Assembly: GCA_027083345.1 (NCBI GenBank)
Contig: JALWOZ010000008.1
Coordinates: forward strand, 5,006-69,005
DNA length: 64,000 bases
Source of the DNA: Candidatus Kaiserbacteria bacterium
Lineage (GTDB): Bacteria; Patescibacteriota; Minisyncoccia; Phycocordibacterales; UBA2100
Direction: 5' to 3'
In this document: positions 10,828-34,185 of the stretch, one piece after another
How positions within the stretch are numbered: position 1 is the first letter of the stretch
Layout of the letters: every line of letters begins with the position of its first letter
Notes under the pieces: model-generated
Seen by the model: only the letters and a program-made list of their open reading frames with translations
Database searches by the model: none
Told to the model about the DNA's origin: nothing
Translations under genes and position numbers: made by a program

Positions 10828-11970
10828 ATGTTGAACCTTAAAGACATTACTATACGAAATACTAAAGAATTTATTGAAGAAGCCATAAACGCTGCAGATT
10901 CATTTGGCTTCTCAAACTTAGACAATATTCTAAATAAACTACCTTCAAAAAGATTAAAGGCTGCAAATAAAGTTATACATGCCAATCCAAGAGAGAAAAA
11001 CTTCCTAAAAACAGTCCGTAAATTAGCTACAAAAAATACACAAAAAACTAAAGAACACATATTAGGATACAGCATTAACAAAAATAAAGAGTCTGAGAGT
11101 ACCTTTACCCTAAATGTGGCGGGTACGAATAATCCTATATCTGAGGCTACTATCATAGCTACAGCATATACTCTACTAGATAATATAGGGATACCTGATA
11201 CGACAGTACATATAAACTCTCTCGGTACACATGAGTCTTTTACTAGATACATACGCGACTTAACTAAATACTTAAAAAAGATATCTAAAGATACCCCTCT
11301 ACAAGTCCGTGCAGACCTGGCCATATCTCCTTTAAGGGCATACGCTAGATTATGCAATAACAATAAAGACTTAGCCAAAGGTTGTCCCCAAGCAATAGAC
11401 TACTTAAATGATGATGGTCGCTCGCACCTATGGGGCCTATTAGAGTACCTAGAGGGAGCAAGAATACCTTATGTATTAGACAACACTGTAACAGGTAGCG
11501 GGGACTTTTTTGAACATACAATGTTTGAAATCTGGGACGATAAAAAAGACAACTTAATAGCTTATGGCGGTAGACATAATGTATTAAGCAGAAAAGCTTT
11601 CAATAAAAACATACCGATCACCACACTCTCTATAGATATAAACGGTAATGTAAATAAATTTAAACAAATCAAAGAAGACAAAAATCCAACATTTTACTTT
11701 GCTCAACTAGGTAATAATGCAAAAAAATTAGGATTAAAGGTATTACGAGATCTACACAACGCTGGCATAAAGGTTAAACATACAATAACCCATAAAGAGC
11801 TAACTAAACAAATGAGTAACCCCCTAGCCAAACAAGTACCTTTTGTCATTATTATAGGCCAAAAAGAGGCCTTAACAGATTCTGTAATAGTCCGAGATAC
11901 AGCTACCCATAAACAAAAAGTTGTACCAACTAAACAATTGGTGAGGTACTTGAAAAAGTTACAACGATAA
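10828..11970 (+). CDS. Histidyl-tRNA synthetase-like protein lacking catalytic motif 2 (HisRS paralog / pseudo-synthetase) with intact anticodon-binding domain
   Basis: Aligns by eye to HisRS. LNVAGTN occupies the place of LRPEGTA, HINSLG is present, PLRAYARL matches NPLRVLD, GGRHN replaces GGRYD, and the C-terminal HGPT-type anticodon-binding domain is kept (FYFAQLGNN...VPFVIIIGQKE). The ~60-aa motif-2 segment (FRYERPQ.GR) is absent. Confidence 0.55.
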   Translation: MLNLKDITIRNTKEFIEEAINAADSFGFSNLDNILNKLPSKRLKAANKVIHANPREKNFLKTVRKLATKNTQKTKEHILGYSINKNKESESTFTLNVAGTNNPISEATIIATAYTLLDNIGIPDTTVHINSLGTHESFTRYIRDLTKYLKKISKDTPLQVRADLAISPLRAYARLCNNNKDLAKGCPQAIDYLNDDGRSHLWGLLEYLEGARIPYVLDNTVTGSGDFFEHTMFEIWDDKKDNLIAYGGRHNVLSRKAFNKNIPITTLSIDINGNVNKFKQIKEDKNPTFYFAQLGNNAKKLGLKVLRDLHNAGIKVKHTITHKELTKQMSNPLAKQVPFVIIIGQKEALTDSVIVRDTATHKQKVVPTKQLVRYLKKLQR

Positions 11971-25997: not shown

Positions 25998-26069
25998 GGT
26001 CCTATAGTATAATGGTTAGTACATCGCCCTCTCACGGCGGAGATCGGGGTTCGACTCCCCGTAGGATCA
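25998..26069 (+). tRNA. tRNA-Glu (anticodon CUC)
   Basis: Folded by hand. Acceptor GGTCCTA/TAGGATC (one G-U), D-arm with GG loop, anticodon stem TCGCC/GGCGG with loop CT-CTC-AC, 4-nt variable region, T-arm CGGGG-TTCGACT-CCCCG, discriminator A, no encoded CCA. Confidence 0.8.
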
Positions 26070-27756
26070 CATCAAGGGATTTTTGTCCCATATACTCATC
26101 AGATAGCCTGAAAATAGGCGACATTTTTGGTGTTCCATTAAGTATTTCTTGGTATGTTGGTGTTTCTTCAAATACAAGACCAAATAATGCCTGTTGAGTA
26201 CCTAAATCGTCATTATTTATAAGCATTTCTACTGGGTGTTCCATTAGATGTTTTGCATATCGTACAAATGCCTTTATTTTCTTCTCACTAACCTCAATAG
26301 TATTGCGTTGTGTCTCTGCCAATAGTATATCTTTTTCTAGTTGGTCTATTTCTTCCTCTTTCTTTTTTCTAACAACAGCACTCTCTATCATATCAAGTGC
26401 TTGAAGTTTTACCGCTTGTTGACTTTTTAGGTCTGCAACATTTCTATTTATTTGTGATGCTTCTTGCACTATGTCTTTTTCTCGTGCTCTATATCTTTTA
26501 AGGAGTACATACTCTAATGAGTTTGCAAAGTCATCTTCAAACTTCATATTTTCAACAAAGTGCTTTATATTTTTCTCAAACTCTTCTTTTGGTATACGAT
26601 TGTATTTATGTGCTCTCTTGCCAGTTTTATAACCCCCACAGTGGTATGCTGGGTGCTTTTTGCCAAGTTTACCTCTTGAAGCACTTCCCAATAATGGCTT
26701 TTTGCACTCTTGGCATAATAAAAACTTGAATGGATAATCTGGATTATTTTTATTACGTTGCTTCTGCCACGGAGAATAGTCTTTGAGTATTTTTATAGAA
26801 CCATCTTCATTCTCTTGTATAAAAACCTTTCCGTGGTTTGCTTTATTAAATAGTTCAATGGAAACTAAGCCGTCATATTGAGTACGTATAGGCTTATTGT
26901 GTGTCCATCTTTCAGTACGAATGCCAGCATAGATGGTTCTTTGTATGTATCTTTGCAGTTGCTTTACTGTAAGTTTATTCCCACCAACACTTCCGATTAT
27001 ATGCATTTTATCTTTACTCCATCTATTCATCTTAGGTGTTCTGAAACCCATTGCATTTAGTTTCTTAACAATCTCTTTATCTGGGACACCTCGTGCACGC
27101 AACTCAAACATTTTTATAAAATAATGTGCCCTGTCTGGGCTTGGAACTGCAATAAATCTCTTCTTTCCGTTAATAAGTACCTTTTTATTAGCATATCCAT
27201 CGTTTGCTCTGCGTACCGTATAACCGTCTTGTATAGTTCTTATTGAAGCACCAACCATTCTAGTTAAAATACCAGATACGTCATCTTCTGCCCTTTGTGC
27301 CTCCATAAGTTGTGCACTTGCAGTGGCAGAATGCTTACTCCAAGAGTACTCAAATCCTAAATCACCAAGTGTATTTATTTCAGGTTGTATTATTCCATAC
27401 GTGTCTACCAGTTCTACACCCAAACTTCTAAGACTGTCTTTCATACTTTGATAAGTAACAGCACCGTCTCTTGTAATCCTATCTATACTTTTTATTAAAT
27501 AATAGTGTACTTGTATACCTTTTGATTTTAACTCTTTTATGTATGTAAGTATCTGCTTAAAATCCTCTCTTTCTTCTGCACGTCCAGAATATACCTTACT
27601 AAATATATTAAGTGTATTCCATTTTTTTGCATCAGCATAACTTGTACACATCATCTTTTGCTCGTCTAAACCACCACCAGTGAGTTGTTTCTGGGAACTA
27701 ATCCTACAGTCTATTATGCAGTTTTTTTGCTCTTCTGGTTTTTTTAGAGTATTCAT
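26032..27756 (-). CDS. Large serine recombinase (phage-type serine integrase)
   Basis: N-terminal resolvase domain (CRISSQKQ with catalytic Ser; DRITRD), recombinase domain, Cys-rich zinc ribbon (CQECKKPL...YHCGGY) and a C-terminal coiled-coil. The last ~12 codons overlap the 3' end of the tRNA-Glu. Confidence 0.85.
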   Translation of the reverse strand: MNTLKKPEEQKNCIIDCRISSQKQLTGGGLDEQKMMCTSYADAKKWNTLNIFSKVYSGRAEEREDFKQILTYIKELKSKGIQVHYYLIKSIDRITRDGAVTYQSMKDSLRSLGVELVDTYGIIQPEINTLGDLGFEYSWSKHSATASAQLMEAQRAEDDVSGILTRMVGASIRTIQDGYTVRRANDGYANKKVLINGKKRFIAVPSPDRAHYFIKMFELRARGVPDKEIVKKLNAMGFRTPKMNRWSKDKMHIIGSVGGNKLTVKQLQRYIQRTIYAGIRTERWTHNKPIRTQYDGLVSIELFNKANHGKVFIQENEDGSIKILKDYSPWQKQRNKNNPDYPFKFLLCQECKKPLLGSASRGKLGKKHPAYHCGGYKTGKRAHKYNRIPKEEFEKNIKHFVENMKFEDDFANSLEYVLLKRYRAREKDIVQEASQINRNVADLKSQQAVKLQALDMIESAVVRKKKEEEIDQLEKDILLAETQRNTIEVSEKKIKAFVRYAKHLMEHPVEMLINNDDLGTQQALFGLVFEETPTYQEILNGTPKMSPIFRLSDEYMGQKSLDVILRGVEPRSPP

Positions 27757-27758
27757 AT

Positions 27759-27998
27759 TTACATAACTTTATTATACATCTCTTGTACACTTTTTTCTTC
27801 TACAAGCCATCTGTCAAGAAGTATATCTGCCAACTTAGATTGAGTATGGTATAAATCTTTGATTTCATTATCAGACATAGATAATCCCTTTTTACCAAGT
27901 GATTTCTTAAAGCCATTAAACCACTCCTCTGCACCAAGTTGTTTACTATTTAGACTATTGTTTTGTGTTTGTTGAGGTTGCATAGTATTTTGCACCAC
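27759..27998 (-). CDS. Small hypothetical protein adjacent to integrase (possible recombination directionality factor)
   Basis: 79-aa ORF 2 nt upstream of the integrase start on the same strand; no motif. The RDF role is a guess from position only. Confidence 0.3.
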   Translation of the reverse strand: MVQNTMQPQQTQNNSLNSKQLGAEEWFNGFKKSLGKKGLSMSDNEIKDLYHTQSKLADILLDRWLVEEKSVQEMYNKVM

Positions 27999-28214
27999 AA
28001 CAACACATCAACACAAAAAAGTGTCCGATAAGACACTCATTAAAACTCCTCTAAAGTTTAGTCAACAAGAGAAGATGAATGCTCATCTTGACTGTTGTTG
28101 CAGTCGTACCCCCGTCCCCAACAGAAGATAAACTGACTAAACTTGCTATTATTTTGTATCTTTAAGTATACTCAAAATATGAGAAAACACAATACACCGC
28201 TATAAATAAGGGTT

Positions 28215-28282
28215 ATTTGACTGCCATTGGTTAGGCACTGTCTGTCATTGGTATGCCACTGTCAGCCAATGGTTTGTCATAA
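28215..28282. promoter_or_regulatory. Cluster of short CCATTGG/CCAATGG and GSCACTGTC repeats (candidate operator/att-type site)
   Basis: tgactGCCATTGGttagGCACTGTCtgtCATTGGtatGCCACTGTCagCCAATGGtttgtca, in the intergenic region upstream of 28292..28759. Confidence 0.35.
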
Positions 28283-28291
28283 TGATTGTGG

Positions 28292-28759
28292 TTACATTGA
28301 AGAAAAAGCACTCATACTCTCTCCTTGTTGTGTTCTATGTCGTACTTGCTCGCCAAAAACATTACAGTTAGGGTCTGTTGGAATAATAGAAGTATTACTT
28401 TCTATCTTTGGCTCAATAGGATTACGGGGTGGTGTGTTTGCAAGTTGCTCTGCCAAACTCTCTATCTGCTCATCTGTTATACTGGAAATATCCAGTATTA
28501 ACTCCTGCTCTGGTCGCTCTGGGTTGAGTATTACAGCCTTTGGTGGCTTTCTGTTCTCCATTCCACTCTCGCCATAACCTAATATCTCAAGTTCCTGTCT
28601 GACTAATGGGCTATTAAAGACCTTGTGTGGCTGACGAACAACTGCATTACTATAACCTGCCTTACGTAGGGCATCTGCCTTACTCTTTCTACCGCCCTCA
28701 ATCCAAAGTTCTATCGCTCGTCTTTGAGGGTAGGATAACTGCTTACCTTTTGTACTCAT
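28292..28759 (-). CDS. Phage terminase small-subunit-like HTH protein
   Basis: LSYPQRRAIELWIEGGRKSKADALRKAGYSNAV matches the Terminase_2 pattern (L.kq..F...Y.....n...Aa..AGYS...A). Confidence 0.5.
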   Translation of the reverse strand: MSTKGKQLSYPQRRAIELWIEGGRKSKADALRKAGYSNAVVRQPHKVFNSPLVRQELEILGYGESGMENRKPPKAVILNPERPEQELILDISSITDEQIESLAEQLANTPPRNPIEPKIESNTSIIPTDPNCNVFGEQVRHRTQQGESMSAFSSM

Positions 28760-28857
28760 AGTGGTATTTTAGCATAAAAAGGTCTCTCCCGAGTGAGATT
28801 TTGCTACCTTTTGCTACCGTCTACTACCGACTAAAACGTATGTTTCCTATAATGAAG

Positions 28858-29754
28858 TTATTCTTTTGTACTAACCTCAATGACTTCATCTGGCTTTGTA
28901 ACCCCCTTATATACATCAATCAAAAACTTTTTTACACTTGAAAAAATATCTGGACTTATTTCTTCATCGCTTGTATGGTTATCCTTTATATTTTGCATTG
29001 GAGAAGAGTATAGATTGCTGACCGACTTTAAGATAAATGCCAACTTTTCTTTCTGTGTTTCAAGTTTTTGTTTTGAATAAGCATCGTCCAAAATCTCTTT
29101 ATATGCTTCAAAAGAGCGAGCAATCGCTGACTTAAATGTATATTCTTCTATAAGGTTACGAGTACGAGCATACTCACGGTTAAAAAACACAACAGCATAT
29201 ATAAGTGGAGAGGTGATGGCTATTTTTGTTAGAAAACTTAAATCATATATAGTTTGCGTCTCATAAACTTGCCACAGAACTATTACAGTGGTTACAAAAA
29301 CGAGAAATCCAGTTGCCTTTGTTAACTTTTTAAGCCATTCATCACGCTCTTTTGTTAGATTTTCCTGCACCACAGAAAATGTATGTGCAAGTTTTTCGTT
29401 TGACGCTTTTCCAAGTTGTGAGAGTGTCTCTTGTCGTAACTCATCGGTTTTTATTTGTAGTTCTTTTGTCTTATCTACAAGAGTTGCTGTACTTTTCTCT
29501 CTTTTGTCTAACTCTGCTTTAAGTGCTACAACTTGTTGTGTTAGGTCAGTTAACTTTTCTTCATCATCTGGGAGTTTAGTAAGAACAACGTCAAGTTTTT
29601 CCTTTTGCTCCGTTAAATCTTCTGCAAGTAGTTGTAACTTATTGCCCTCATCAACAAGTACAGACAAATCACCTAACTCTCCCAAGCGTAGTTCTATCTT
29701 TCTCAACATTTCTTCCAACTCCTTTTTGGTCATAATATGTCTATTGTACCACAA
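28858..29754 (-). CDS. Coiled-coil membrane protein, hypothetical
   Basis: Long heptad-like region (LEEMLRKIELRLGELG...), then two TM helices (FLVFVTTVIVLWQV / ITSPLIYAVVFF). Confidence 0.4.
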   Translation of the reverse strand: MWYNRHIMTKKELEEMLRKIELRLGELGDLSVLVDEGNKLQLLAEDLTEQKEKLDVVLTKLPDDEEKLTDLTQQVVALKAELDKREKSTATLVDKTKELQIKTDELRQETLSQLGKASNEKLAHTFSVVQENLTKERDEWLKKLTKATGFLVFVTTVIVLWQVYETQTIYDLSFLTKIAITSPLIYAVVFFNREYARTRNLIEEYTFKSAIARSFEAYKEILDDAYSKQKLETQKEKLAFILKSVSNLYSSPMQNIKDNHTSDEEISPDIFSSVKKFLIDVYKGVTKPDEVIEVSTKE

Positions 29755-29821
29755 AATGGCTATGTTTACAGTTTATTATCCAACAAGGAAACAGACGCTG
29801 ACTACTTATTTTATAGTTGAC

Positions 29822-30241
29822 TTACTTTAACAAAGTAGATTGCGTAATATCTTTAAGTTGTTGCTCATTCTTGCGTAAATCTATCTCAATAAGTTTATGC
29901 TCTGCATTATGAGTGTATAAAACCTCTTTTTCTTGAAGTGTTGCGTCATCATCTAGCCACAGGAAATCTCGTCCAAAATCTATACCTTCAGTTTTATGTT
30001 CACTCCATACAGTATGCTTATATCCGACAGTAAGTGCGTACACATCTTCTGGCAAGAAACGTTGTAGGTACTTCTGTAAGTGTGTTAAGTCGCCATCGTG
30101 GCAGTGAGTAGTGAGCCAATACACATCATAATCACTTGCATTAAGTGCTTGTAGAAACTCTTTGAGGTATGGTGCAGGAGTGCCAAGGTCGTGCAGACCG
30201 TCAAAGATGAGTGTTCCGTCAATATCAAGATAAATGTTCAT
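29822..30241 (-). CDS. HAD-superfamily hydrolase-like protein
   Basis: N-terminal IYLDIDGTL (HAD motif I, DxDGT); 139 aa. Confidence 0.45.
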   Translation of the reverse strand: MNIYLDIDGTLIFDGLHDLGTPAPYLKEFLQALNASDYDVYWLTTHCHDGDLTHLQKYLQRFLPEDVYALTVGYKHTVWSEHKTEGIDFGRDFLWLDDDATLQEKEVLYTHNAEHKLIEIDLRKNEQQLKDITQSTLLK

Positions 30242-30250
30242 ATTAGAGGC

Positions 30251-31783
30251 TTATTGGCATTCTGGACTTACTAAACCGCCTATATATACACCTGTTGTAG
30301 AAACACTCCTTGCTTTTTGCAGTGCACATTTCTGCTGAACGGTCTGGGTGTATGGTTCACAACGAGTATTGTAAGCCCTATTTTTCTTAAATATACTGTC
30401 ATTAGTTGTTGTATAGCACTTCACGGATTGTGTGCTTGGTATTGGCTGTGTAAAACTTTGTTCGGCTTGCCTTGTAATCATATTAAGACTTGCTTGCGTT
30501 GATTGAACTATACCTGAAAGGCGTGATATTCGCTCCAAATCGTCTAAAATATCCTCCTCTGCTCGTTTAGTGTGTGTTCCTATTGTCTCAAATACAAGGT
30601 TATCAACCTCAACTAACCTATCTGTGATTTTTGTAAAATCTTCTGTATATGAACCATTGTCGCCAAGTGTCATAGCCAACCTCATTCCACAGGTTAAATA
30701 CATTTTATTTTCTACCCATTCAGACGTATTCAACCCTATACACTCACGAAGTCTGTCTTGGTCTTCTGTGATAACTGAAACTACATCTTTTTTCTTTAAG
30801 GCATCTATAAAATACAAATCTACTGTCTCGTATAGGGAGTTTATATGACCAGTAAGATAATCACTGTCTGCAACAATACTATCTCTTCGTAGTTCAAGTA
30901 TATCCTTGTAACGACTTGGTACAGATAGAGAACTCTCAATGGCAACATTAGCCCACTGGTTCAACAAGTCTCTTGCGTGTGCAATATGTTTACCCCTATG
31001 TTCTTCTACCGTCTCTTTGAGAAGTAAGTAGTTCTTCTTATCTTCTTCAAGTAGCCCTACTAAAATCTCGGCTTTATCTATAAACTCTTGATGTTCAGTC
31101 TCGTAATCTCTCTCGGTATTTTTTTGATTTGTAACTGGTCTTATTTTATCAGAAAATGAGAACTTATTTGTTTTATTATTATCTTTTTTTACTGGTTCTA
31201 GTATGCGAAAATCTGAAGATGGTTTCTTTGGCTGATTTTGATTTGATACAGTCGGTTTAGTTTTGTTTTTGGGCGTTTGTACAGCGATTTTAATATCTGT
31301 CTCTATGTTTTGCATAAGAGAGCCATTTTTATCAACAGTGTAAAGTCGGTTGATTAAATCCATAGCCGTTTTATCTACTGTTCCAAAGTTATTTGGAGTT
31401 TGAAAATATCCATATTTACCAACTAATCTTGATACAGCCCAGTGTGTTGCCGACCCATAATAGCAAGTAACTGGTTTGTCAAAAACACCCTCTTTTTTCA
31501 GTATCTCTTGTAATGTGCACACATCATTACCTTTTGCACCCTGCTCCATAAAATGCACTACTGGACGTCTCTCAAAGTTCGTACTGTTAATCAACACGTC
31601 CTCTTCTGTACTGGTCGCAGTAGTTTCTACCAACTTGGTAGGTTGTATATTATTTCTGTCTTCTGTCTGTTTTGTAACATAATATCCACCAGTGCTAACA
31701 ACTGTAAGTACTAATACGGCGATAGCCAGTATTGGTATTTGTATAAAACCTTTTTTATTGTTTTGATTAAAACTCATAGTCAT
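30251..31783 (-). CDS. Membrane-anchored protein with peptidoglycan-binding (PG_binding_1) domain
   Basis: N-terminal TM; GAKGNDVCTLQEILKKEGVFDKPVTCYYGSATHWAVSRLVGKYGY matches the PG-binding domain pattern. Confidence 0.5.
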   Translation of the reverse strand: MTMSFNQNNKKGFIQIPILAIAVLVLTVVSTGGYYVTKQTEDRNNIQPTKLVETTATSTEEDVLINSTNFERRPVVHFMEQGAKGNDVCTLQEILKKEGVFDKPVTCYYGSATHWAVSRLVGKYGYFQTPNNFGTVDKTAMDLINRLYTVDKNGSLMQNIETDIKIAVQTPKNKTKPTVSNQNQPKKPSSDFRILEPVKKDNNKTNKFSFSDKIRPVTNQKNTERDYETEHQEFIDKAEILVGLLEEDKKNYLLLKETVEEHRGKHIAHARDLLNQWANVAIESSLSVPSRYKDILELRRDSIVADSDYLTGHINSLYETVDLYFIDALKKKDVVSVITEDQDRLRECIGLNTSEWVENKMYLTCGMRLAMTLGDNGSYTEDFTKITDRLVEVDNLVFETIGTHTKRAEEDILDDLERISRLSGIVQSTQASLNMITRQAEQSFTQPIPSTQSVKCYTTTNDSIFKKNRAYNTRCEPYTQTVQQKCALQKARSVSTTGVYIGGLVSPECQ

Positions 31784-32001
31784 TTAACTATGGCGTAGAC
31801 ATACAAAAAGCCCATCGCCAGAGGTGGACAGAAGCCCACTATGCAGGTTTCCCCACATAACCAGAAGAGCAGTCCCTGAACGACGGGTTCTTTACACTCT
31901 TCTGGTTTTTGCACCATACCTCTCAAATGAGAGGGTTAGGTACTCCATCTTGTTAGATGTTACCATTATTCTAACATAAGATTGCGATTTAACCTCACTC
32001 T

Positions 32002-32012
32002 GCGAGGGTTAT
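32002..32012 (+). promoter_or_regulatory. Extended -10 promoter (TGtTATAAT) for the KAP NTPase gene
   Basis: gggttaTGtTATAATggtttatt, ~17 nt upstream of the ATG at 32029. Confidence 0.4.
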
Positions 32013-32028
32013 GTTATAATGGTTTATT

Positions 32029-33285
32029 ATGAGTACATCTGGATTTGTTAAAGATAGAGAAATACTTGAAGAAACTCACAAGGTTGAGGATTTGTTGCAC
32101 TTCACTGACGAGATAATGCGACTTAAAGAGACAATAGACCGTATTCCATATTCAGCACTTATTGGATACATTGGCAAGTTTGGAACAGGTAAAAGTACGG
32201 CTATATATCAGTTAAGAAAAGCATACGAAGATGTTAGATGGTTTGAGTTTGATGCGTGGAAATATCCAGACAGAAAGGATTTATGGGAGGGTTTTGTACT
32301 AGATATTGCAGACCAACTTGGCGATAAGAAAAAGACCACAGGAAAGATAGATGGAAAAACTAGCACTAGTAAAACAGTCCGTGCAATAGCACAGATAGCA
32401 CAGTTTGCAGGAGTGGCGACAGGTCTTTCTTTTATAGCGGAGAAGTTTAGTTATTTGTTTGAGGGACAGCGAATAGAGCGAGTTTTTGAAATACAGGGAC
32501 TATTAAATGATATGTTATCTACCGTTACAGAAGATGAGATTTTTATTGTTGTTGAAGACATAGACCGTTCAGGTGATGCAGGTAAATACTTTTTGGAGAC
32601 ACTAAAACAGTTTGTTAAAAATAATACTTCTAAAAAGAGAATAGTTGTTATTGTGCCAATAGGAGAAGAAGTCTACGAGCAAGACATAGATTTACAAGCA
32701 TCTTACTATAAGTCATTAGACCATATACTGTATTTTGAACCTAAGAACACTGACTATTCTGGGTTTATAGATATGGTTTTTGATGAAAGTGTATTTCCAA
32801 AAGATTTTCAAAGCCAACCAAATGTTGCTGTTGAAGCAATATGGAAAGTACACCTTGAGGAATGGTTTCAACTTGCATCTGGCTCTTTAACAATACGTGA
32901 GATAAAGGCGACTATAAGAGAAGCAAATATCCATTACCGTAGATTGTACGCAGACGGTTATGAGCCTGACCCACGTATTATGTTAGCACTTACACTTTTG
33001 ACCAAGATTAAAACAGATGGAGGGAAACGTTGGATTTCAAAAATAAATACAAACAATCCTATACAAGGAAGTTGTCCTATTTATCCTTATTTACAGTCAG
33101 TTGCCAAAAATATGACACTAAACCAAACTTCTCAAAAGGGGTACGTACTTATGGATACTAAGTTTATTCAAGATAAGAGGTATACAATACCAGTTATAAA
33201 TAATGCCATTGGTATTTCAGAAAAAGATGTATCTTATATATTGTCAGATTTTTATCTAATACCATTTGGTATTATTCAAAGGTAA
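32029..33285 (+). CDS. KAP-family P-loop NTPase
   Basis: Walker A LIGYIGKFGTGKST. It is followed by FEFDAWKYPDRKDLWEGFVLDIADQL, the KAP-family signature (F.AW.Y.....LW..ll..i). Walker B-like IFIVVEDIDR. Confidence 0.6.
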   Translation: MSTSGFVKDREILEETHKVEDLLHFTDEIMRLKETIDRIPYSALIGYIGKFGTGKSTAIYQLRKAYEDVRWFEFDAWKYPDRKDLWEGFVLDIADQLGDKKKTTGKIDGKTSTSKTVRAIAQIAQFAGVATGLSFIAEKFSYLFEGQRIERVFEIQGLLNDMLSTVTEDEIFIVVEDIDRSGDAGKYFLETLKQFVKNNTSKKRIVVIVPIGEEVYEQDIDLQASYYKSLDHILYFEPKNTDYSGFIDMVFDESVFPKDFQSQPNVAVEAIWKVHLEEWFQLASGSLTIREIKATIREANIHYRRLYADGYEPDPRIMLALTLLTKIKTDGGKRWISKINTNNPIQGSCPIYPYLQSVAKNMTLNQTSQKGYVLMDTKFIQDKRYTIPVINNAIGISEKDVSYILSDFYLIPFGIIQR

Positions 33286-33474
33286 GCCACCAAAACATAC
33301 TCACTACTATTGTTCTACTCCCTGTTAGGTAAATACATCAAGAGATGATATGTAGTATTCTTCATATTTTAAGCCATTATACTGTAACTGGTATTGGTAT
33401 CTTGTATGTGTTGAAAACATAATCCCACCGTAGTACCATACTTTCTATGGTGTTCCATTGTAGGGACTGTATGT

Positions 33475-34185
33475 TCACAAATTGAAGTAATTCCACAAGA
33501 TGGCGTCTAGGTGGAGTGGTGGAATTTGTAACTCTTTTGCTATTTTGTTATAGAACTCTCTAACTTCTGTGATATTTTTTAAGCCTTTTGGCGCTAATTT
33601 AATAAGTCTGGAGTCAATGGGTGCTGATAACTCAAACGGATATTGTATAAATTTGCCATAAACTACTCTACCGGCATAGCCAAACATCTTGATGGCGAAG
33701 AGTATCGTCTTGTCTGTCACTCTCTGCCTCATTACGCTTGCCAAGCTCTCGGCTAGGCTGAGCATATCATTATAATACTCCCTCGCTTGCCCTCGCTCTA
33801 TGAACTCTGCATAAAACTCGCGGAGCTTCTCTACTCTCTTGAGTTTAACCTCTACTAGCCTCTTATTGCACACTGAGTTGGGTAAAAAAGCACTAAAGAA
33901 GGCAACAACATCGCCAAAAGAAGCTACAGTAGGCAACTCCTCAGCAACACACTCTGCAAACTCTTCCCAATAGTCCTCACCCTTGCCAGAGAGCTGATAG
34001 CACACTAGAGCATTAGTAATAACTAAAAACAAATAACTCTCCACCGCCAACCTGCCACTCACACCCAACCAAAGACTCCTTAACGCCAAAAACTGTCTAT
34101 CATTGCTCTCTGTTTTTAACACTTGTGTAAATGTAATGTCGTGCAAATTATATTGCTTAATAAATTCTCCATAATCCATAAACAT
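33475..34185 (-). CDS. AGOG-like N-glycosylase/DNA lyase (tentative)
   Basis: DRQFLALRSLWLGVSGRL...GEDYWEEF... and KTILFAIKMFGYA resemble the archaeal 8-oxoG glycosylase (AGOG) family as I remember it. GC is visibly higher than in the core genes. Confidence 0.4.
   Translation of the reverse strand: MFMDYGEFIKQYNLHDITFTQVLKTESNDRQFLALRSLWLGVSGRLAVESYLFLVITNALVCYQLSGKGEDYWEEFAECVAEELPTVASFGDVVAFFSAFLPNSVCNKRLVEVKLKRVEKLREFYAEFIERGQAREYYNDMLSLAESLASVMRQRVTDKTILFAIKMFGYAGRVVYGKFIQYPFELSAPIDSRLIKLAPKGLKNITEVREFYNKIAKELQIPPLHLDAILWNYFNL

Follow-up and report, generated by a model that had tools for sequence, protein, structure and literature searches.

The window, that is, the whole stretch of 64,000 nucleotides that was analysed, contains a single tRNA gene according to ARAGORN, a tRNA-Glu with the anticodon CTC called at 25998–26070 on the forward strand. 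The Rfam tRNA model (65.5 bits) ends one nucleotide earlier and delimits 72 nt, and the pairing of the acceptor stem can be read directly from the sequence. Antisense to the 3′ half of this tRNA lies the 3′ end of a reading frame for a large serine recombinase (LSR). The overlap amounts to 38 nt up to the discriminator A26069, or to 39 nt if the tRNA end given by ARAGORN is used, and the stop codon TGA of the LSR (26032–26034) is the complement of the anticodon bases 35–36 together with A37. Thus the first-pass annotation, which had described a canonical 72-nt tRNA with anticodon CTC overlapped over about 38 nt by a 574-aa recombinase on the opposite strand, is confirmed for both genes, for the recombinase also by Pfam and PHROGs matches. 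An alternative code reading TGA as sense was discarded, as the long ORFs of the window are intact under table 11. The features of the locus are collected in Table 1.

Table 1. Features of the tRNA-Glu locus and of the inserted element (positions of the window)
Feature	Position	Strand	Basis or remark
Host tRNA-Glu(CUC)	25998–26069	+	ARAGORN; Rfam RF00005; intact; final 3 bases in the crossover core
LSR, integrated form, 574 aa	26032–27756	-	Pfam, PHROGs, homologues
Host-encoded LSR end I564–P574 (ILRGVEPRSPP) and TGA	26032–26067	-	antisense strand of the tRNA; direct reading
attL core TCACA (TGTGA on the LSR strand)	26067–26071		tRNA positions 71–73 and 2 nt downstream
Whole integrated element, both cores included	26067–33479		unit length 7,408 bp
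Small ORF, 79 aa	27759–27998	-	directly upstream of the LSR, co-directional; candidate accessory or directionality factor
Four cargo ORFs, 155, 298, 139 and 510 aa	28292–31783	-	no conservation in other elements
LOOT RNA (Rfam RF03000)	31824–31942	-	40 nt upstream of the 510-aa ORF
KAP-family P-loop NTPase cargo gene, 418 aa	32029–33285	+	Pfam KAP_NTPase, 8.8e-9
Displaced C-terminal LSR exon NIQSLQWNTIESMVLRWDYVFNTYKIPIPVTV and stop	33377–33475	-	motif search; tail HMM E = 3.7e-14; in-frame reconstruction
attR core TCACA	33475–33479		stop codon TGA of host AGOG lies within it

The LSR matches the Pfam family Resolvase with 4.7e-10 (40.2 bits, cut-off 23.3 bits), Recombinase with 3.7e-7, which is also above the cut-off, and Zn_ribbon_recom with 7.7e-5, where 23.4 bits are slightly below the cut-off of 25.3 bits; the PHROGs integrase family is matched with 7.4e-34. 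The catalytic domain is a Resolvase domain with the serine nucleophile and the Arg and Asp residues of the class: R18 and S20 in the motif CRISS as well as D92, R93 and R96 show little or no variation across 32 family members. It is followed by the Recombinase domain and a zinc ribbon with coiled coil (the Zn_ribbon_recom match being below cut-off), and C348, C351, H372 and C373 are invariant among the family members aligned (n = 32). The AlphaFold model of the homologue P0100 has long paired helices at residues 398–477, and Foldseek matched this model to the full-length integrases of SPbeta (1.8e-14), Bxb1 (4.6e-11) and phiC31 (4.1e-10). Tyrosine recombinase chemistry is excluded by the Pfam domains and by this fold. 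We found 437 homologues of the LSR at E ≤ 0.001. A sequence search of the PDB with the LSR gave no match and the plasmids of PLSDB contained no member of the family; the best family matches among GenBank phages were merely 21–24% identical, with no close match, and a scan of 2.9 million IMG/VR contigs returned one locus only.

The overlap between LSR and tRNA is not due to chance because 47 of 58 related loci likewise have an LSR 3′ end over an antisense tRNA. An artefact of assembly or gene calling, which might be suspected as one Logan contig terminates within the tRNA, has a negligible probability, since the locus was assembled independently in the ENA/NCBI and in the Logan data and the same architecture is present in dozens of independent MAGs.

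The first-pass annotation had proposed that an integrated element supplies the 3′ end of the tRNA, and had suggested searching near ~35.6 kb for a partial copy of the tRNA marking the other junction. There is none: the window does not contain the tRNA 3′ segment a second time, even with up to 3 mismatches allowed, and general repeat finding in the window returned chance-level repeats only and no longer repeat flanking the element. We place the far junction at ~33.5 kb because the TCACA core of the tRNA terminus recurs at 33475–33479; this pentanucleotide is the sole sequence common to both junctions. In the window alone a core of 5 nt is just modestly significant and it gains its weight from the recurrence across the family. 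The stop codon of the host AGOG gene is directly followed, just within the far junction and in the orientation of the LSR, by a displaced exon encoding the conserved natural tail of the LSR, ...SLQWNTIESMVLRWDYVF....

Joining the two ends of the element at the core gives the reconstructed attP junction GGGACAAAAATCCCTTGATGTGAACATACAGTCCCTACAATGG; the reconstructed attB junction is ACTTCAATTTGTGATCCTACGGGGAGTCGAACC. The attP form carries an open LSR gene of 595 aa (...KSLDV|NIQSLQWNT...*), the exon joining codon V563 of the LSR in this excised form only. The attP core is thus located inside the integrase ORF, which receives a new 3′ end upon integration, and consequently insertion exchanges the final 32 residues for 11 tRNA-antisense residues.

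A sister element was found both free (L061) and integrated (L016). The L061 contig is colinear across attP with both ends of the integrated element of L016 at 92% identity, and the two alignments overlap by the 4 nt GTGA. The free sister, which is devoid of tRNA-like sequence, diverges from the integrated form exactly at this GTGA, at the end of the tRNA. Therefore the 38 overlapped nucleotides at our locus are host tRNA, with the LSR ORF reading into it. The free-form contigs are linear and no terminal overlap was found in them.

For tyrosine-integrase islands in tRNA genes the usual picture is that the tRNA 3′ half is donated by the element. Transferred to our locus the crossover would be inside the tRNA, in the anticodon/T-arm region, and the donated half would also be the recombinase C-terminus, for which the overlap of LSR and tRNA itself could be quoted. 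We consider this very improbable: the junctions share just 5 nt, and these are at the tRNA terminus, no displaced tRNA 3′ segment was detected in the window (3 mismatches allowed), the free sister continues after GTGA with the tail exon instead of tRNA sequence, and 15–17 of the 120 homologues listed are free forms that run directly into the conserved WNT tail (..SPLSLEWNTxExMVxxWxxVF..). The proposed donation of the tRNA 3′ end was therefore abandoned.

The arrangement is a recurring one. The tRNAs under the LSR 3′ end in the 47 loci are mostly tRNA-Glu (37), followed by tRNA-Trp (7) and one each for Ala, Lys and Tyr, and about 93 of the 120 homologues listed have a tRNA-antisense C-terminus (...VTLRGIEPRF.., ...GIEP...). 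Of 57 genome loci, 25 are matched by an HMM of the tail, and every one of these matches is upstream of the LSR and on its strand, the opposite strand giving none at E < 0.05 among the 57. With the core search limited to the tRNA 3′ end, and with the cores of L015, L020 and L043 being ambiguous ties, LSR and tail could be rejoined in frame via a core of 3–8 nt in 21 of the 21 loci having both features; the elements in these loci measure 2.0–11.1 kb. Across the family the core reads (T)GTGA and occupies the corresponding position of the tRNA. A short att site with a small crossover and no long repeats, as in the LSR class, is therefore present here (5 nt) and in the 21 loci (3–8 nt), the exact 2-bp crossover within the core being unreadable from sequence. 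The motif W-N-T-x-E-x-x-V-x-x-W-x-x-V-F is kept in free forms and stranded exons of LSRs that are only 41–55% identical, from which we conclude that selection acts on the tail helix of the free form. The C-terminal residues of the free tails are heterogeneous and contain no consistent degron, so that an ssrA-like degron was rejected. Some family members end at an early stop, ...QRIEL.

Comparison with related genomes, as advised in the first-pass annotation, upheld a site-specific integration at the tRNA by an element that is apparently mobilised by its LSR. L065 and L067 are syntenic around the locus, with the order AGOG ... tRNA-Glu(CTC), orf239, orf433, MnmA, orf138, ATP-cone, and all seven element genes are absent from them. 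Neither an isogenic empty site nor an attP form of this exact element was found, and the JGI metagenome contigs gave 0 matches each for the attB pattern (exact or degenerate) and for the exact tRNA 3′ half. The GC content of the element is 0.362, compared with 0.364 and 0.386 for the flanks, and the GC shift assumed for the cargo is thus ruled out.

Possibly the element is a fixed, immobile remnant whose recombinase is decaying or has been domesticated. Direct evidence for excision of this copy is absent, and a GC content equal to that of the host is compatible with a long residence. We nevertheless regard a remnant as improbable: the LSR ORF is full length and has kept the conserved residues R18, S20, D92, R93 and R96, the stranded tail exon is without stops and scores on par with any other (E = 3.7e-14), the two cores are identical, and the closest syntenic relatives do not carry the element.

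The anatomy of the element, its junctions and the family-wide recurrence are demonstrated, as are both states in a sister element. We conclude that very probably an integrative element of 7.4 kb, in a genome of Patescibacteria type, was inserted by its own LSR at the 3′ terminus of tRNA-Glu(CUC), with attP inside the LSR gene. According to this model attP would be situated 32 codons ahead of the natural stop, and the free form would encode 595 aa with the conserved helix ...SLQWNTIESMVLRWDYVF... at the end. Strand exchange with the host site would take place within TCACA (tRNA positions 71–73 plus 2 nt). After integration the tRNA is intact, the LSR ORF runs antisense into it and terminates at TGA, giving 574 aa with 11 residues dictated by the tRNA, and the natural tail exon is stranded 7.4 kb away at the opposite end of the element. 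The complete LSR gene would be regenerated by excision.

Phage Mx8 likewise inserts at a tRNA gene, namely at its 3′ end. With IntP and IntX it is the closest analogue, sharing with the LSR family the layout of attP within the gene; its attP is inside the integrase coding sequence, and upon integration the recombinant gene acquires a different 3′ end and its product is altered yet active, IntP and IntX having been described as a molecular switch (PMC6070905). Mx8 Int, however, comes from a tailed phage, has tyrosine recombinase chemistry and stands as a single case, whereas here the design is family-wide among LSRs of small non-phage Patescibacteria elements; despite the shared layout our LSR does not belong to the protein family of Mx8 Int. 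The integrases of the fuselloviruses SSV1 and SSV2 also contain the att site within the int gene, which is interrupted by integration (PMC5861418). These are tyrosine recombinases as well, and their gene is split in two large parts, whereas in our element the exchange affects no more than the final 32 codons and leaves all catalytic and DNA-binding domains together in a single ORF. In the integration-dependent immunity systems of the mycobacteriophages BPs and Brujita and their relatives attP is near the 3′ end of a gene, and integration swaps the C-terminus and changes the behaviour of the protein (PMC6109161). In those phages, which again use a tyrosine integrase, it is the repressor that is rewired and thereby deprived of an ssrA-like tag; in the present family the recombinase itself is rewired, and no consistent degron was seen at its tail ends.

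With phiC31, Bxb1, SPbeta SprA and A118 our LSR has in common the resolvase catalytic domain, the recombinase domain and the zinc ribbon with its long coiled coil, as borne out by the fold match, and like the canonical phage LSRs it uses a short att core without long direct repeats. In canonical phage LSRs, to our knowledge, the int ORF does not contain attP, and the usual targets are protein-coding genes. The present family, in contrast, targets tRNA 3′ ends, has an extra helical C-terminal region and a tethered tail, and is less than 25% identical to any GenBank phage match. As in tyrosine-integrase tRNA islands the tRNA 3′ end is the landing site and the tRNA is preserved. Those islands duplicate 15–50 nt of the tRNA as direct repeats, whereas the junctions of the present family have only 3–8 nt in common, without duplication of any tRNA segment. 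In the literature, which we covered incompletely, no description of attP within the integrase gene turned up either for serine recombinases or for elements of Patescibacteria; this does not prove its absence.

By analogy with IntP and IntX of Mx8, it is quite conceivable, if short of probable, that the tail swap alters the activity or the directionality of the recombinase and thereby stabilises the integrated state. Homologues of the small upstream ORF, of 50–130 aa, are present at the same position in about 30 loci, and its product may be a partner of the LSR; the 79-aa protein belongs to no known family, a search of Pfam and PDB returning no significant match and only weak EF-hand-like noise. 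The tail exchange could equally well be without effect on recombinase activity, stability or directionality, which we also hold to be a real possibility. In the AlphaFold model of the free-form homologue P0100 the tail has a pLDDT of 37–54 and is docked nowhere, and a specific role of the tail therefore finds no support in the model. Moreover, the tRNA-derived residues are set by the tRNA and not selected, and some members end early at ...QRIEL; directionality control could be supplied by the conserved small upstream ORF alone. On the other hand, the tail helix motif is kept across LSRs just 41–55% identical, such a swap alters integrase behaviour in Mx8 (PMC6070905), and a directionality factor fused to the C-terminus can flip the directionality of an LSR, as described in two reports (PMC5737554; 10.1101/2025.05.02.651858).

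More speculatively, and to our mind rather doubtfully, the tail exchange could be a built-in state sensor of the serine integrase, directionality being set by the DNA rearrangement and not by a regulated separate factor. The tethered amphipathic helix of the free enzyme would then permit integration, or block the action of the co-transcribed small protein as directionality factor, and the integrated form without the helix would be inert or excision-competent. If true, nature would have its own equivalent of the engineered integrase–RDF fusions, spread across hundreds of LOOT-carrying Patescibacteria elements.

Irrespective of the function of the tail, the placement of attP inside the integrase gene, known from tyrosine integrases (Mx8, SSV1), has evolved in LSRs too and is the rule for a whole LSR family of several hundred proteins in the ultra-small Patescibacteria, whose mobile elements are poorly described. 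For an apparently major class of these elements the boundaries are hereby defined precisely, together with a core of two conserved genes and a rule for the target (tRNA 3′ terminus, mostly tRNA-Glu). A coupling of serine-integrase activity or directionality to the integration state, if it occurs naturally, would bear on the long-standing question of LSR unidirectionality and on the use of these enzymes in genome engineering. Gene callers will systematically give a false C-terminus for these LSRs, and the reconstructed free-form sequence should be used for expression.

The cargo does not have the phage character ascribed to it in the first-pass annotation: capsid, terminase, portal, tail and lysis genes are missing among the six cargo proteins when searched with Pfam, PHROGs and PADLOC. 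A prophage is ruled out, with no hallmark genes, a single IMG/VR locus and no close GenBank phage match. The LOOT RNA reaches 79.2 bits, the gathering score being 46.4, and covers the full model (1–121), and is thus a member of this RNA family. LOOT is found inside 12 of 19 delimited elements, and this orphan RNA thereby gains a genomic home. The KAP NTPase matches PDC-S20 (3.9e-8) and PifA (5.2e-5) in PADLOC, and a 53% identical copy is carried by the element of L005.

The only tRNA that ARAGORN finds in the 64-kb window is a tRNA-Glu, which scores 65.5 bits against the Rfam tRNA model (25998-26069) and whose acceptor stem pairs from G25998-C26068 to A26004-T26062, so that A26069 is the discriminator base. 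On the opposite strand, the ORF of the large serine recombinase (LSR) lies above the Pfam cut-offs for Resolvase and Recombinase, slightly under the cut-off for Zn_ribbon_recom, and matches a PHROGs integrase family (7.4e-34). The protein ends with ...KSLDV ILRGVEPRSPP, and its final eleven codons and the TGA that closes the ORF correspond to tRNA positions 35-72 read in reverse complement, this stop being the complement of anticodon bases 35-36 and A37. The first-pass annotation had described a tRNA(CTC) overlapped in antisense by the C-terminal codons of a 574-aa LSR, and this description is correct throughout as judged from ARAGORN, Rfam, Pfam, PHROGs and the sequence. An independent assembly of the locus (L002, a contig of Logan SRR13853571) ends at locus position 11741, inside the tRNA and 16 nt beyond the LSR stop; the contig may break off at the attachment site because occupied and empty sites coexist in the population, or simply because the tRNA is repeated.

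A homologue search in 5.8 billion proteins returned 437 relatives of the LSR at E <= 0.001, and we inspected the C-termini of the best 120 of the 437 (44-74% identical). About 93 of these 120 carry a conserved ...NGTPKLS..F.LS..F...KSQLV followed at once by a peptide such as TLRGIEPRFxx, TLPGIEPGLPx or TLQRIEL, where GIEP is the translated complement of a tRNA T-arm. A minority of 15-17 among the best 120 has a conserved proteinaceous tail, (S/N)P(L/V)xL(E/Q)WNTxExxVxxWxxVF, and then 5-20 variable residues. The two classes suggest that the WNT tail is the natural end of the enzyme and that the tRNA-type ends are generated by integration. If so, the far end of an integrated element should encode the tail in the same orientation as the LSR.

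A six-frame search for the natural-tail motif gave exactly one site in the window (...VNIQSLQWNTIESMVLRWDYVFNTYKIPIPVTV, then a stop), just beyond the stop codon of AGOG, the host gene for an N-glycosylase/DNA-lyase. Read on the LSR strand, the junction between LSR and tRNA is cccttgaTGTGAtcctacgggg and that between AGOG and tail is ttcaattTGTGAacatacagtc, and both contain the core TGTGA. Rejoining LSR and tail at this core keeps the frame (...GQKSLDV/NIQSLQWNT...PVTV, then the stop) and gives a protein of 595 aa, whose junction region matches homologues with the natural tail (free forms), e.g. P0103 (...LLVNQPSLEWNS...). The element is 7,408 bp long. Since the core spans only tRNA positions 71-73 and two bases downstream, the tRNA is host-derived and preserved; the earlier idea that the element supplies the tRNA 3′ end has to be abandoned, and so has the partial second copy sought near ~35.6 kb, as the tRNA 3′ half occurs only once in the window and the far junction lies at AGOG.

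The crossover core contains the TGA stop of AGOG (33475-33477). Without the element, as reconstructed, AGOG and tRNA-Glu would converge so that the AGOG gene terminates precisely at the final bases of the tRNA; the C-terminus of AGOG is the same in the occupied and the empty site. The tail-exon bases adjoining the core (33464-33474, ACATACAG) resemble, when read on the LSR strand, the tRNA acceptor strand adjoining the core (26056-26066, TCCTACGG), and a similar resemblance is seen in the compared loci L016 and L010. Similarity of the inner half-sites is usual for serine-integrase att sites, and the resemblance would fit this; the first tail codons would then be constrained both as DNA and as protein.

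Coordinates of the features in the window and of LOOT RNAs in compared loci (L numbers)
Feature	Position	Strand	Remark
tRNA-Glu	25998-26070	+	anticodon CTC
Core at tRNA	26067-26071		TCACA on (+)
LSR ORF	26032-27756	-	574 aa
Small ORF	27759-27998	-	directly upstream of LSR, co-directional
LOOT RNA	31824-31942	-	Rfam match, RF03000
KAP-family NTPase	32029-33285	+	weak match to PADLOC candidate defence families PDC-S20, PifA
Tail exon	33377-33475	-	displaced C-terminal LSR exon
Core at AGOG	33475-33479		TCACA on (+)
AGOG	33475-34185		Pfam 4.4e-49
LOOT RNA, other loci	L005 9407-9523, L006 1529-1650, L007 8635-8753, L010 8744-8864, L011 4847-4965, L013 7429-7560, L015 8730-8851, L031 6666-6788, L033 3623-3734, L043 4662-4784, L047 9350-9467, L064 3066-3178

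The same arrangement recurs in the LSR family. Scanning GTDB with one genome per species gave 57 loci, almost all from Patescibacteria MAGs (Paceibacterota, Saccharibacteria, Yanofsky-, Staskawicz- and Moraniibacteria, among others). With one viral contig added there are 58 loci with an LSR 3′ end, and at 47 of the 58 this end overlaps an antisense tRNA (Glu-TTC 25, Glu-CTC 12, Trp-CCA 7, Ala, Lys and Tyr 1 each). The tail HMM matches 25 of the 57 genome loci, always in the orientation of the LSR and upstream of it; among the 57 there is no opposite-strand match at E < 0.05. At all 21 loci with both tRNA and tail exon, a core of 3-8 nt at the tRNA 3′ end rejoins LSR and tail in frame, and the rejoined ORF is open as far as the tail stop. 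The tRNA-Glu cores of this set are mostly (T)GTGA, and its elements are 2.0-11.1 kb long.

Some family members use other targets, either tRNA-Trp, Ala, Lys or Tyr or a non-tRNA site (loci L021, L006, L028, L029, L032, L033, L035, L040, L042, L044 and L048); L021 has the core ATTTGTGG and no tRNA. At tRNA-Trp, Lys and Tyr the overlap amounts to 66-75 nt, the LSR ORF extending in antisense across the whole tRNA or the greater part of it.

The free-form protein P0100 is encoded on L061, an 8.6-kb contig which aligns with the integrated element of L016 at 92% identity in two pieces. The first (L061 1079-3303, L016 9423-11636) covers the LSR as far as the tRNA terminus, the second (L061 3300-4199, L016 4281-5180) the far element end from the tail exon onward, and they share 4 nt of the query, GTGA. 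Judged from the sequence, this pattern is what site-specific recombination at a GTGA core leaves behind, and it shows that the free form carries no tRNA sequence. The free-form contigs examined are linear as assembled and have no terminal overlaps.

The order AGOG ... tRNA-Glu(CTC), orf239, orf433, MnmA, orf138, ATP-cone is conserved in two relatives (AGOG 71% and 47% identical), in which none of the seven element genes has a match; an isogenic empty site for the window element was not found in our searches. In the compared locus L065 the family core (...GTGA...) follows the tRNA with no adjoining recombinase. The interval between AGOG and tRNA-Glu holds a 154-aa ORF and a terminator in L065 (4740-5376), YbjQ, a tRNA-Ser and an MscS channel in L067 (3276-4738), and the element in the window; it looks like a variable hotspot.

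Our data show attP within the LSR gene and attB at the tRNA 3′ terminus; integration swaps the last 32 LSR codons for 11 tRNA-antisense codons. We hold this anatomy of junctions and tail exchange with high confidence. An AlphaFold model of P0100 (89-sequence alignment, mean pLDDT 84.8) shows a complete LSR and matches the full-length SPbeta, Bxb1 and phiC31 integrases in Foldseek (E = 1e-14 to 1e-10). Beyond the coiled coil it has an extra helical region (~480-545, pLDDT 64-89 by 10-residue block), a low-confidence linker (549-561) and then the tail helix (563-576, pLDDT ~37-54). In this monomer model the tail looks like a tethered amphipathic helix and not like part of a folded domain.

Besides the LSR, the sole widely conserved element gene is the small ORF (F.EFKK.LG....SDEEI..LR..QD.LA..FFD.WL), present at the same position in ~30 loci, e.g. 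L016 9816-9977 and L064 5444-5698. It encodes 50-80 aa in compact members and, as called, up to ~130 aa, and since it abuts the LSR start the two form a conserved module. It matches no known family, with no significant hit in Pfam or the PDB, and may be a directionality factor or regulator. Possibly this ORF alone supplies the control, which speaks against a regulatory role of the tail swap. A regulatory role of the swap is itself a tentative proposal, to which three observations point. The tail motif is conserved in free forms and stranded exons alike at 41-55% overall LSR identity. In Mx8 a swap of this kind changes how the integrase behaves and is regarded as a switch (PMC6070905). Finally, one paper reports reversed directionality when a directionality factor is appended to the LSR C-terminus (PMC5737554), and the phiC31 excisive complex was solved using an LSR-directionality-factor fusion (10.1101/2025.05.02.651858).

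Mx8 IntP/IntX, the closest analogue, has the same layout with attP inside the integrase gene, but its enzyme is a tyrosine recombinase. SSV-type integrases (PMC5861418) and integration-dependent immunity (PMC6109161) are more loosely alike in layout and also employ tyrosine recombinases, whereas the window enzyme belongs to the LSR protein family and to none of these. From studied phage integrases it differs by sequence distance and by attP inside its own ORF, and its family by the tRNA 3′-end targets and the almost exclusively Patescibacteria hosts. In the literature searched, whose coverage is incomplete, we found no description of this LSR design, and within that coverage we regard it as a variant, in an LSR, of the known attP-in-integrase layout.

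The remaining cargo consists of four ORFs without assigned function and the KAP-family P-loop NTPase, of which one other family element carries a copy (L005 7252-8502, 53% identical). The cargo had been called phage-like and GC-shifted; neither label applies, as Pfam, PHROGs and PADLOC revealed no phage hallmark gene and the GC content of the element (0.362) equals that of the flanks. Free-form LSR genes occur near conjugation-type genes in L063 (107-1294, 12305-12958) and L069 (1809-7857), namely a coupling-protein-like ATPase (TrwB/VirD4-like), DUF87/VirB4-like and a Replic_Relax relaxase; L063 additionally has a gene for a tyrosine integrase. Conjugative or mobilisable elements may thus exist among the relatives.

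LOOT, an orphan RNA, was to our knowledge known only from unclassified metagenomic DNA. Copies scoring 61-86 bits lie inside 12 of 19 delimited family elements and on one free-form contig, with none in the host flanks scanned. Their orientation relative to the LSR varies, and usually an ORF follows on the same strand after 35-90 nt, its product beginning with a transmembrane or signal-like segment.
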